A DNA stretch of 64,000 nt from sequence record NC_054912.1; one strand, written 5' to 3'. This document shows, one piece after another, positions 37,964-40,549 of the stretch. The notes beneath the pieces are model-generated. The model had not been told where the DNA came from. It saw nothing but the letters and a program-made list of their open reading frames with translations, and did no database searches. Origin of the DNA: Escherichia phage vB_EcoM_F1. Positions within the stretch are counted from its first letter, which is position 1. Each line of letters opens with the position of its first letter. Both the position numbers and the translations under genes were made by a program.

Positions 37964-38437
37964 TTATTTGATTTGTTTAGCAGACCAAATGCGGTCTTTA
38001 ATAATTTTTTGGATGTCTTCAACATACTCAAGAGAGTGAGCATGTGGGTTATCTTTGAAACTATAAGCACGAGCTAGTTTTTGGCCTTCAGTTTTGATTA
38101 CTAAAAGCTCTTTAAGGATAGCTTCATATTTGGAGATAATTCCTTTAACAATATTTTTCTCTTGTGCGACTTTAGGATCTGCTTTAGGAGCAGGTTTACC
38201 CGAAGCCTTTGCAAAAGCAGCGCCAGTAGCAACTAAACTTTTCCAGGCCATACTAACTGCATTTCCCGTAAATCCTTCCGCTTTCATGTCGCGTGCGAAC
38301 TGGAATCGTGATTCATCAGAAGCATCTTTGTAAGAATATTTACCCGCTGCAATGGCTGCTTTTGCGACAGCTTGAATTTCGGTGCTAGATGCTTCATTTA
38401 ACACCGCTTCATTTAAAAATTGAGTATATGATTTCAT
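37964..38437 (-). CDS. head internal protein (IP-type), second copy class
   Basis: 157 aa; N-terminal MKSYTQFLNE|A targeting sequence. Confidence 0.65.
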   Translation of the reverse strand: MKSYTQFLNEAVLNEASSTEIQAVAKAAIAAGKYSYKDASDESRFQFARDMKAEGFTGNAVSMAWKSLVATGAAFAKASGKPAPKADPKVAQEKNIVKGIISKYEAILKELLVIKTEGQKLARAYSFKDNPHAHSLEYVEDIQKIIKDRIWSAKQIK

Positions 38438-38478
38438 CTTATTTCCTGTTTTAATTCGTGGATTTAATATACTACTAT

Positions 38479-38486
38479 ATTTATAC
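38479..38486 (-). promoter_or_regulatory. late promoter (TATAAATA) for the IP gene
   Basis: Plus tatttata about 40 nt upstream of the IP start. Confidence 0.6.
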
Positions 38487-38518
38487 CAAAAAGCCCCAAC
38501 CTTTCGGTCGGGGCTAAG
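38484..38518 (-). terminator. terminator hairpin, copy 2 of the 35-bp direct repeat
   Basis: ataccaaaaagccccaacctttcgg... near-identical to copy 1. Confidence 0.6.
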
Positions 38519-38566
38519 CCTTGCGGCAACCTTGTCGGGGTTCCACCTGCTAAGGCAAGTGTTTGT

Positions 38567-38658
38567 ACGAAACGCCGGGATTCGAACCCGGTTATTAAGC
38601 AGTTGACGCTACTCAATATTTTTAAAAGGCCATATCTCGACCATATCCGAACGTTCCG
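38567..38658 (-). ncRNA. tRNA-like structured RNA candidate (possible stable RNA species)
   Basis: Canonical T-arm CCGGG-UUCGAAU-CCCGG with flanking 7-bp acceptor-like pairing (CGGAACG / CGUUUCG), but a 60-nt insert; no ORF in 38520-38824. Confidence 0.35.
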
Positions 38659-38824
38659 TCAAAAACGCTACTCGGCTTATGGCAAAGATATTTCCTCGAA
38701 TCGATAATTCGGTGCGCCGTTTCTGCTGTGATGTAAGAGGGCATCAATAAACGCAAAGATTATTAACGCAATTCCTTACTCAGGGAACATCAGTCCGACG
38801 ACTTACCGGTAGCGACCCGGTTTC

Positions 38825-39175
38825 TTAATATTCTTTTAAAGAATCAATATATTCACGGCGTTTACGCCACAAATCAATTGCTTCATACGCGGATTCAGCA
38901 TTTCGAATTGGTCGGCATTTATGTAAAGACTTATGATTTTGATATTTTGTAGATAATGGAATTTTATCTAAAAGGTCTTTACGTTCAAAGTATTCGTAAC
39001 CATCTAAGCCAAATGAACGATTTTTGAGAAATTGCCAATGACCAAATTCGTTTTGAATATAAATATAATCCGCATGTTGATAAAGTAAATTAATTTCACG
39101 AAATGAGATATGTTTTTCATATTCATTGAAGTAAAATGTTAAATCATGAACTACTAAATAAACATTACCTTTCAT
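38825..39175 (-). CDS. hypothetical protein
   Basis: About 116 aa from MKGNVYLVV with a GAGGAA RBS; the listed ORF start at 39223 would overlap tRNA-Arg. Confidence 0.5.
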   Translation of the reverse strand: MKGNVYLVVHDLTFYFNEYEKHISFREINLLYQHADYIYIQNEFGHWQFLKNRSFGLDGYEYFERKDLLDKIPLSTKYQNHKSLHKCRPIRNAESAYEAIDLWRKRREYIDSLKEY

Positions 39176-39193
39176 ATTTTCCTCACTTATAAT

Positions 39194-39270
<77 letters not shown>

Positions 39271-39273
39271 TAA

Positions 39274-39939
39274 TTAAAATTTCATTTTTCGACCTTTAAA
39301 CCATCCTTCTGGAATTGGGTCAGTTTTCTTAATACGTTTAGAAACTTTTTCATCTAATGAATGAATCCACATCATACCAAATTGGGAATTCTTTTCACCT
39401 TTCTGGTGATTATTTTTAGCGTGAATTTCTTTCATTTTATTAATAGTTTCAAGAGTATGATGCTTATTTAAAAATCTGCTATTATTTAAAAATTTTTCCC
39501 TGTATTCAGGAGTTGACCACAAGCGTTTAAATACATTTGAACCATGTTTACGATATTTTTCTTGAAGTAAAATATCATTTTTAAAACGTGACTTAAACGA
39601 TTTAGCTCCTTTTAAACTAGCGTCTTTCTTCTGGTTTAGCATCTCAGGAATATTTATATGATCCCATCCGCCTTCACCGCCAAGTTTTAAATTATACACA
39701 TCTGGTCTATTTAAAAACTCTTCTGTGACAATATTTTTCTCGGCTTCAAGCATAGATTCTTTATCATCAAAATATTCTAATATTTCTTTAGAAAAATTTT
39801 CTATACCATACCTGTCTTGGGCTCTTTTTAATAATTTACCAGAACCCATATATCCATCATCTAAATTTTCGGTAGAATGCACACCAATATAAATTTTATT
39901 ATTAATTTTATTTGTTATTTTATAAGTGTAATGGAACAT
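39274..39939 (-). CDS. segB: GIY-YIG homing endonuclease SegB
   Basis: 221 aa; YTYKITNKINNKIYIGVH GIY-YIG motif; sits inside the tRNA cluster as in T4. Confidence 0.85.
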   Translation of the reverse strand: MFHYTYKITNKINNKIYIGVHSTENLDDGYMGSGKLLKRAQDRYGIENFSKEILEYFDDKESMLEAEKNIVTEEFLNRPDVYNLKLGGEGGWDHINIPEMLNQKKDASLKGAKSFKSRFKNDILLQEKYRKHGSNVFKRLWSTPEYREKFLNNSRFLNKHHTLETINKMKEIHAKNNHQKGEKNSQFGMMWIHSLDEKVSKRIKKTDPIPEGWFKGRKMKF

Positions 39940-39980: not shown

Positions 39981-40052
39981 TGGCCCTGGGTGGAATTGAA
40001 CCACCATCTGGCGATTATGAGTCGCTTGCTTGAACCTTCCAGCTACAGGGCC
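39981..40052 (-). tRNA. tRNA-Ile/Met type (anticodon CAU), no encoded CCA
   Basis: Manual cloverleaf; anticodon loop CUCAUAA; acceptor GGCCCUG/CAGGGCC. Confidence 0.8.
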
Positions 40053-40053
40053 T

Positions 40054-40129
40054 TGGTGCTGATTGACGGAATCGAACCGCCGACATCCTCATTACAAGTG
40101 AGGTGCTCTACCTACTGAGCTAAATCAGC
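40054..40129 (-). tRNA. tRNA-Thr (UGU), CCA encoded
   Basis: Anticodon loop CUUGUAA; 1 nt from the Ile-type tRNA (dimeric precursor arrangement). Confidence 0.85.
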
Positions 40130-40136
40130 GAAATTA

Positions 40137-40223
40137 CGGAGGCGATAGGATTTGAACCTATGAGTCGCCGGAGCGACTGCCGGTTTTCAAGACCGGTGCA
40201 TTAAACCACTCTGCCACGCCTCC
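40137..40223 (-). tRNA. tRNA-Ser (UGA), class II, no encoded CCA
   Basis: Long variable arm; anticodon loop CUUGAAA. Confidence 0.85.
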
Positions 40224-40225
40224 AG

Positions 40226-40299
40226 TCTCCGCGGCAGGATTTGAACCTACGACATTCTGCTCCCAAAGCAGACGCTCTACCAAACTGAGCTACACGGAG
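40226..40299 (-). tRNA. tRNA-Pro (UGG), no encoded CCA
   Basis: Anticodon loop UUUGGGA; 2 nt from tRNA-Ser. Confidence 0.85.
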
Positions 40300-40309
40300 T
40301 AAATTAAAT

Positions 40310-40383
<74 letters not shown>

Positions 40384-40388
40384 AAATT

Positions 40389-40475
40389 TGGTGCGAGAAG
40401 TGGGACTCGAACCCACAAGGAAATCATTCCGCAGCATTTTAAGTGCTGTGCCTTTACCAATTTGACCATTCTCGC
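40389..40475 (-). tRNA. tRNA-Leu (UAA), class II, CCA encoded
   Basis: Anticodon loop CUUAAAA; long variable arm. Confidence 0.85.
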
Positions 40476-40476
40476 G

Positions 40477-40549
40477 CTGGGAATAAAGGACTCGAACCTT
40501 TGCATCCTGGAATCAAAATCCAGTGCCTTACCAACTTGGCTAATTCCCA
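40477..40549 (-). tRNA. tRNA-Gln (UUG), no encoded CCA
   Basis: Anticodon loop UUUUGAU; 1 nt from tRNA-Leu. Confidence 0.85.

Follow-up and report, generated by a model that had tools for sequence, protein, structure and literature searches.

The closest described relatives of the element treated here are two small RNAs of phage T4. In the T4 record NC_000866 two misc_RNA features follow directly after the transfer RNA (tRNA) gene tRNA-Arg: rnaD (species 2 RNA, 119 nucleotides (nt)) and rnaC (139 nt), the latter entered as T4s001 at 70908-71046 and labelled 'small, stable RNA; species 1 RNA'. The T4 annotation has included rnaC since the 1970s-80s, and the gene itself is no new find. The work of Paddock and Abelson and work on RNase III, from 1975-76, reportedly described an RNA of ~140 nt whose long arm is cleaved in vitro by RNase III. 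The T4 RNA is co-transcribed with the tRNAs of its operon, with the transcript terminating after the species I gene (PMC2330249), and during T4 infection it is seen by Northern blot as RNAC and classed as late (PMC9697503). Here we analyse its counterpart in Escherichia phage vB_EcoM_F1 (NC_054912.1). The DNA studied, which we call the window, is a stretch of 64,000 nt in which an initial annotation had flagged positions 38567-38658 as a candidate tRNA-like RNA.

The flagged interval is, as homology to T4 makes near certain, part of rnaC. The explanation that best accounts for the comparative data, at a probability of roughly 0.85, is that rnaC is a 139-nt minus-strand RNA with an oversized cloverleaf fold that is probably processed through the tRNA pathway. 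The structural model, which comprises a terminal acceptor, kissing loops and homologues with a CCA, may be a new one.

Several other non-translating RNAs borrow the acceptor/T-arm shape of tRNAs: mascRNA and menRNA, the YrlA (Y RNA) modules and the 3' tRNA-like structures of plant viruses. Such modules recruit RNase P, RNase Z or the CCA-adding enzyme, or bind proteins that recognise tRNAs. Transfer-messenger RNA (tmRNA) is likewise processed by tRNA enzymes. An acceptor/T-arm minihelix is enough to be recognised by RNase P, TrmA, TruB and the CCA-adding enzyme.

The rnaC gene of vB_EcoM_F1 and its place in the tRNA operon

The vB_EcoM_F1 window is a Tequatrovirus (T4-like) genome. Its region 38440-38900 is 100% identical over 461 base pairs (bp) to Escherichia phage vB_EcoM_FN (Tequatrovirus), and 742 phage records match it by BLAST; a sequence search finds at least 80% of the query covered in 726 phage records. 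When the block formed by rnaD, rnaC and the trailer is aligned with T4 by BLAST, 336 of 344 positions are identical (98% identity). The T4 and vB_EcoM_F1 versions of rnaC are thus the same gene, of the same 139-nt length and in the same slot after rnaD and before the trailer and terminator, and they differ by three substitutions (nt 25 G to A, nt 66 U to C, nt 105 A to G) that keep the pairs. Strand and place are also as in T4: eight minus-strand tRNA genes detected by ARAGORN and Rfam stand in an order that matches the T4 tRNA cluster, and rnaC lies 3' of this cluster and of rnaD and 5' of the operon terminator. It is the last gene of the tRNA operon, with the terminator after it (Table 1).

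One of the suggestions of the initial annotation, that this could be a stable small RNA co-transcribed with the T-even tRNAs, was correct. Its extent was misjudged: the flagged interval corresponds to nt 47-138 of the 139-nt RNA, so that the 5' 46 nt lie outside it. The motifs quoted there are a minus-strand reading. The stretch 38520-38824, reported as free of open reading frames (ORFs), indeed overlaps none of more than 50 amino acids (aa). A custom covariance model, R1, has a single match in the window, at 38562-38709(-) (164 bits, E-value 6e-33), and there is no paralogue.

A conserved, oversized cloverleaf

Sensitive BLAST searches with the window RNA and two divergent homologues, to which pattern scans of IMG/VR and of metagenomes contributed few further types, led to a set of 31 distinct homologues of 138-142 nt, which make up alignment A2 and to which the counts below refer. 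Full-length relatives are present in Tequatrovirus, Mosigvirus (RB69), Karamvirus, Moonvirus, Kanagawavirus, Winklervirus, Gelderlandvirus, Marfavirus and an unclassified Citrobacter phage; homologues thus occur in at least 8 phage genera, and the hosts are all Enterobacterales. The fold scored on this alignment has a terminal acceptor and includes a helix between two loops, and its two invariant U.U positions are counted among the cells. In this fold 92.3% of the cells are paired, as against 34-47% in slid controls, and 17 of the 36 pairs show compensatory changes (110 cells), a value reached by none of 500 shuffles. RNAalifold, run blind, arrives at the same architecture with compensatory changes in 24 of 38 pairs and adds three further helices in the giant arm; the giant-arm helices 20-22/76-78, 28-31/67-70, 35-38/59-62 and 43-47/54-58 all contain such changes. 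The full-length RNA has a minimum free energy of -50.6 kcal/mol (z = -4.1; none of 200 shuffles is as stable), and the same minimum-energy fold is obtained for six of eight homologues folded singly, namely the six of the T4/Karam/Moon type. Comparative analysis therefore supports an oversized cloverleaf as the conserved fold of rnaC.

The predicted architecture is as follows: the true 5' end (nt 2-8) would pair with nt 131-137 to form an acceptor-like stem stacked on a canonical T-arm; a D-like stem would carry an arm of ~64 nt tipped by the loop UUGACG; and a 10-bp hairpin (hairpin 2), occupying the position of the anticodon/variable arm, would carry the loop CGUCAA. The acceptor positions read, in order, C-G, G-C, R-Y, U.U, U.U, C-G and G-C, with both U.U invariant; at the third pair (A4-U135; alignment pair 9-144), which lies between invariant flanking pairs, 20 sequences have GC and 11 have AU. 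The 3-bp D-like stem is paired in 97.8% of cells and nearly invariant, and hence offers no covariation evidence. The remaining stems do covary: all five pairs of the hairpin 1 stem, nine of the ten pairs of the hairpin 2 stem, and the third pair of the T-stem (alignment pair 125-137), which is UA in 16 sequences, GC in 12, AU in 2 and UG in 1. The length is held to 138-142 nt in all 31 homologues. Judged from these sequences, the length and fold of rnaC are under selection, and such strong structure-preserving conservation across genera contradicts the degenerate tRNA that had been considered for the interval.

The giant arm comes in more than one form within a single genus. The Karamvirus loci (L003 as against L006, L084 and L086) have either a type I (T4-like) or a type II arm, with the remainder of the RNA and the neighbouring tRNAs alike, which suggests that the arm is exchanged as a module by recombination.

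Searches in environmental data added little to the set. A scan of IMG/VR with the pattern TTCGAGGA...GGTTCGAATCC returned 57 loci, of which nine are genuine and the others ordinary tRNAs, and a scan by loop and T-arm pattern recovered the same nine loci. With a loose 5'/3' pattern and subsequent covariance-model screening, at least two new homologues appeared among the matches listed. The 15 loci from a metagenome scan are near-identical Tequatrovirus copies and unrelated GC-rich soil tRNAs.

The tRNA-like end and its position in tRNA arrays

The T-arm CCGGG-UUCGAAU-CCCGG was read correctly at the outset: it is present exactly at 38575-38591(-), and its pattern CCNGGTTCGAATCCNGG occurs once in the 64 kb against 0 expected from 100 shuffles. 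It stacks directly on the acceptor 3' strand, and the tRNA-like character ascribed to the interval was in this respect rightly recognised. In the window the genome continues with CA after A139, giving a 3' end U-ACA. T4-type sequences end in ...CGUUUCG-U-ACA, whereas Marfavirus sequences end in ...CGUUCCG-U-CCA; a U-CCA end is encoded in five Marfavirus homologues and in locus L131. The encoded U-CCA of Marfavirus therefore fixes the acceptor register as that of a tRNA-type end.

The likeness to canonical tRNAs (RF00005), those of class II especially, extends to several features: the 7-position acceptor abutting a 5-bp T-stem, the T-loop UUCGAAU, which fits UUCRANY, the discriminator nucleotide, the CCA of the Marfavirus homologues, and the place and spacing within tRNA arrays. 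The hairpin that ends one nucleotide before the T-arm can be likened to the class II variable arm. However, rnaC has neither a normal D-arm nor an anticodon arm of 5 bp and 7 nt: its D-like stem consists of 3 bp around 64 nt, and its other arm of 10 bp with a 6-nt loop. Its acceptor, moreover, combines five Watson-Crick pairs with two U.U, it has one extra annotated 5' nucleotide, and it is 139 nt long. RF00005 has no match in 38566-38704 even at E <= 10 (gathering threshold 29 bits), and the best match of the tRNA clan, tRNA-Sec at 38567-38659, scores 16.6 bits against a gathering threshold of 47. Hence, rnaC is not a canonical tRNA. We know of no E. coli aminoacylation identity set that matches C1-G72 together with U73 and tandem U.U, and an aminoacylation identity for rnaC was rejected on that ground.

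The tRNA-like domain of tmRNA (SsrA) shows the same topology, namely a 5' acceptor strand, a large body, a T-arm and a 3' acceptor strand. In contrast to tmRNA, the pair 3-70 of rnaC is A-U or G-C and not G3.U70, and rnaC is far smaller, with no tag ORF and no pseudoknot ring; neither ARAGORN nor Rfam finds a tmRNA in the window. To mascRNA/menRNA, YrlA and the plant-virus structures rnaC has no sequence or covariance-model relationship (Rfam below threshold), and their bodies are unlike its giant arm and complementary loops.

The neighbourhood of the homologues is that of tRNA genes. In Karamvirus, Gelderlandvirus, Moonvirus KM16 and phage Ursula, tRNA-Trp is followed after 5-6 nt by the rnaC homologue; tRNA-Gly comes ~5-11 nt after the homologue in the first three, and in Ursula an ORF intervenes. 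tRNA-Met precedes the homologue in Moonvirus NM4.3, elsewhere too rnaC follows tRNA-Met(CAU), and in T4-type phages it follows rnaD. By this context rnaC occupies a tRNA slot in polycistronic tRNA precursors. Because its minihelix is of the kind recognised by tRNA enzymes and its homologues lie 5-6 nt from tRNAs, the tRNA-maturation machinery of the host probably cuts rnaC out, modifies it and makes it stable.

A further structured element adjoins some of the homologues. In Marfavirus loci L087-L090 (~1135-1195) and in L131, a GC-rich hairpin of ~60 nt, GGGGUGG...CCCACCCC, lies between the CCA of tRNA-Met and the rnaC homologue; it is missing from Klebsiella phage EI. This hairpin may serve in processing or represent a further small structured RNA.

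A different reading of the same setting takes rnaC to be a module that acts in cis on the processing or stability of the tRNA operon transcript. Its tRNA-like fold would recruit RNase P/E and shield the polycistronic precursor as a 3' cap, and the released RNA would be a by-product devoid of any trans function. It would fit the position of rnaC as the last gene before the trailer and terminator in T4-type phages, and its constant location within or beside tRNA genes. However, rnaC is internal to the array and not at its 3' end in Karamvirus, Gelderlandvirus and Moonvirus KM16; the invariant loops, covarying contact, invariant U.U and strict length of 138-142 nt exceed what a protective hairpin needs; and the released RNA accumulates as a stable species (PMC9697503). 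Hence, we regard a purely cis-acting module as unlikely.

Complementary loops

The loops of hairpins 1 and 2, UUGACG and CGUCAA, are exact reverse complements, and the two are 100% complementary in 31 of 31 homologues. Five positions of loop 1 are invariant and the sixth varies together with its partner in loop 2, which is itself invariant save for a coupled U-to-C change in Marfavirus. There the Klebsiella phages have UUGGCG and CGCCAA, an A-U to G-C replacement at alignment pair 51-108 (AU in 26 sequences, GC in 5). Calculated duplex energies for the loops are -5.5 or -7.6 kcal/mol for the matched combinations, -0.4 kcal/mol for one mismatched combination and -4.9 kcal/mol for the G.U intermediate. 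Given this exact complementarity and covariation, the two loops most likely kiss in a helix of 6 bp, which may be intramolecular or may join separate molecules.

The loops could alternatively act in trans, with rnaC as a base-pairing riboregulator or a self-associating RNA whose two 6-nt loops pair with targets or with other copies of rnaC. They are its most conserved single-stranded elements; being complementary to each other and not to themselves, they would allow head-to-tail association; and the unequal arms probably make an intramolecular kiss sterically demanding. Nevertheless, the simplest explanation of the coupled A-to-G and U-to-C changes in Marfavirus is that one loop pairs with the other, seeds of 6 nt give no specific target, and no trans-acting small RNA has been characterised in T4 (PMC3014915). 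Action by trans-pairing is accordingly quite improbable.

Points that weigh on the model

Several observations count against a tRNA-pathway-processed cloverleaf with kissing loops. On the side of the tRNA-like end: the vB_EcoM_F1 window and T4 encode U-ACA and not U-CCA; a single pair of the acceptor stem covaries, and two of its positions are permanently mismatched as U.U; and the T4 annotation leaves U1 unpaired 5' of the stem, which is not a canonical RNase P product. The T-loops of Q7622 and Kc304 (loci L092 and L093) are non-canonical (UGCAUGC or UGCAUUC), and therefore a canonical T-loop is not absolutely required. On the side of the loops: the kissing covariation comes from one clade and represents one evolutionary event, and an intramolecular kiss between an arm of ~27 bp and one of 10 bp, as in T4-type sequences, needs a sharp bend. 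With regard to known families, no Rfam family, tRNA included, reaches its gathering threshold over the RNA, with nothing credible at E <= 10 in 38300-39300 and only the eight tRNAs matching in the window. ARAGORN makes no tRNA call over rnaC in the window. Finally, a function for rnaC is established nowhere: the literature of 2010, 2022 and 2025 calls its role unknown, and no recent functional study of it was found in the literature.

The Q7622 and Kc304 homologues also have GGCC changed to CGCC upstream, at the first G of the GG before the 3' strand of the D-like stem. A candidate contact G74:U120 becomes C:G in these two sequences, which are related and carry other T-loop changes; 8 of 500 shuffles reach this signal. 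The contact is reminiscent of the G18:psi55 elbow of tRNAs, which makes it a weaker hint of a similar elbow; alternatively, the change may reflect decay of a tRNA-like elbow in the Q7622/Kc304 lineages.

The pairing on which the region was first picked out leads to a smaller molecule: a tRNA-like RNA or degenerate tRNA of ~94 nt, with CGGAACG (nt 47-53) and CGUUUCG (nt 131-137; 38568-38574) as acceptor strands, an insert of ~60 nt, and a 5' tail that is irrelevant or removed. The two strands exist and can pair over 7 bp, and in T4-type sequences they are better complements than the terminal ones; the isolated 94-nt piece folds in this manner (-30.8 kcal/mol, z = -2.8), ARAGORN reports a tRNA over the corresponding 95 nt of two homologues, and the weak tRNA-Sec alignment noted above covers the same stretch. 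Yet this is not the favoured or conserved pairing. Across the 31 homologues it shows no compensatory change, scoring below the shuffle mean with 500 of 500 shuffles at least as high, and pairs are broken at three positions in 18, 13 and 8 of the 31 respectively. Homologues of type II (KMB17, PEi20, Melville, Marfavirus and others) lack the CGGAACG strand altogether and keep the 3' strand. The first reading is thus confirmed in part: the T-arm holds, but the proposed acceptor has an ensemble pairing probability of 0.000 in the full-length RNA, and forcing it moves the energy from -50.6 to -36.9 kcal/mol (+13.7). The ARAGORN isotypes clash (Met vs Phe), and the tRNA-Sec score falls far under its threshold. 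Instead, nt 47-53 sit in hairpin 1, all five pairs of which covary; the supposed insert of ~60 nt is in fact half of the large arm together with the 10-bp hairpin; and it is with the true 5' end that the acceptor 3' strand pairs. We read the tRNA-Met and tRNA-Phe calls on the 3' ~95 nt as artefacts of the same misleading pairing, and consider a 94-nt tRNA-like RNA very improbable.

That the region holds only a non-functional tRNA pseudogene, or short ORFs of 34-50 aa like those annotated over it as 'hypothetical protein' in many GenBank records, can practically be dismissed, since the substitutions keep base pairs and not codons, indels of 1-2 nt separate the homologues (138-142 nt), the overlapping ORFs start with TTG and are not conserved, and the element is conserved in at least 8 genera and yields an abundant discrete RNA in T4 (PMC9697503).

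Possible roles of the mature RNA

The invariant tandem U.U, the occasional CCA and a loop-loop-held body that presents no anticodon are the grounds for a tentative and still doubtful proposal: that mature rnaC works in trans by imitating the top half of a tRNA. It might bind or titrate a factor, enterobacterial or phage-encoded, with an affinity for acceptor/T-arm ends, and its body, locked by the loop-loop contact, would keep it out of translation. More speculative still, rnaC, with the acceptor/T-arm minihelix as its active end, could be a decoy or inhibitor of an enterobacterial factor that attacks or otherwise acts on the 3' ends or acceptor stems of tRNAs, such as an anti-phage toxin directed at tRNAs. 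If true, the decoy reading would give a role to an RNA known for ~50 years. The comparative model provides handles for experiments: the terminal acceptor with its U.U, the covarying loops, the U-CCA of the Klebsiella phages and the strict length.

Annotation of rnaC in sequence records

In most GenBank records of T4-like phages rnaC is unannotated or mis-annotated, and only a few label it. It is mislabelled as tRNA-Met in Enterobacter phage vB_Ecl_id4496, and ARAGORN calls it tRNA-Phe in an IMG/VR contig. There is no Rfam family for rnaC; alignment A2 and model R1 could seed one. With the gene long known, the value that is left lies in the covariation-supported fold with its complementary loops, in the widespread mis-annotation, and in the question of its role.

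Neighbouring genes

Table 1. Features of the rnaC locus of vB_EcoM_F1; nt numbers refer to the 139-nt RNA, positions to the window unless a locus is named.
Feature	Position	Strand	Description	Basis
rnaC / species 1 RNA	38566..38704	-	139 nt; nt 1 = 38704, nt 139 = 38566	T4 rnaC homology, R1 match
nt 1			variable (U or A), unpaired	
Acceptor-like stem, 5' strand CGAUUCG, nt 2-8	38697..38703	-	pairs with nt 131-137	minimum free energy fold, RNAalifold, pair counts
D-like stem, 5' strand AGG, nt 9-11	38694..38696	-	pairs with CCU, nt 76-78 (38627-38629)	minimum free energy fold, RNAalifold
Giant arm, nt 12-75 (~64 nt)	38630..38693	-	elongated, irregular hairpin with hairpin 1 at its tip	
Hairpin 1 loop UUGACG, nt 43-48	38657..38662	-	exact complement of hairpin 2 loop	
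CGGAACG, nt 47-53	38652..38658	-	last 2 nt of loop 1 and 3' strand of hairpin 1 stem	
A-rich linker UUUAAAAA, nt 79-86	38619..38626	-	A residues conserved (A2); unpaired in all folds	
Hairpin 2, nt 87-112	38593..38618	-	10-bp stem, loop CGUCAA (38603-38608)	
nt 113			single A between hairpin 2 and T-arm	
T-arm CCGGG-UUCGAAU-CCCGG, nt 114-130	38575..38591	-	unique in window	
Acceptor 3' strand CGUUUCG, nt 131-137, with U138 and A139	38566..38574	-	U138 in discriminator position	
3' trailer and intrinsic terminator	38492..38565	-	three small hairpins (~50 nt), then terminator	terminator scan, fold
Intrinsic terminator AGCCCCGACC-GAAA-GGUUGGGGCU-UUUUU	38492-38515	-		terminator scan
rnaD / species 2 RNA homologue	38711..38828 (approx.)	-	upstream neighbour, same transcript	alignment to T4 rnaD
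tRNA-Arg(UCU)	39194-39270	-		ARAGORN, Rfam
segB-like homing endonuclease ORF	39274-39939	-		PHROGs
tRNA genes Gln, Leu, Gly, Pro, Ser, Thr, Met/Ile(CAU)	39981-40549	-		ARAGORN, Rfam
Mis-annotated homologues (examples)	L005 1546-1640; L094 7816-7911		many GenBank records carry 'hypothetical protein' coding sequences	

Upstream of rnaC the window departs from T4 in two ways: an ORF of 117 aa stands between tRNA-Arg and rnaD, and the tRNA-Arg is a different, non-homologous gene. The ORF, at 38825-39178(-), belongs to phrog_3355, of unknown function; T4 has no gene at this place, and RB69 has a similar ORF. In T4, rnaD starts 1 nt after tRNA-Arg. In the window the stop codon of the 117-aa ORF overlaps the site of the T4 rnaD 5' end (UUAAGAAACC vs AUGAGAAACC), and therefore the 5' end of rnaD must arise differently in vB_EcoM_F1. 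The tRNA-Arg(UCU) has the T-loop UUAGAAU, with A at position 56, and a D-loop AAUUGUAUA devoid of GG; it could have a U19-A56 pair in place of the near-universal G19-C56 pair of the elbow.

The 3' end of rnaD also differs: in T4 it reads ...GCGCACC followed by A, which is CCA-like, and the window has G at that base. A second tRNA-like RNA in rnaD was considered and rejected, as it has no T-arm and only a weak predicted fold (z = -1.55). The Karam, Moon, Kanagawa and Marfavirus loci have no rnaD; the gene ahead of rnaC there is a tRNA.

Downstream, an ORF of 157 aa at 37964-38437(-) lies directly 3' of the tRNA-operon terminator and belongs to phrog_2280, of unknown function. In the interval from rnaC to e.8, T4 has no annotated ORF in ~280 bp and RB69 has two; the 157-aa ORF is another variable cargo gene of the region.

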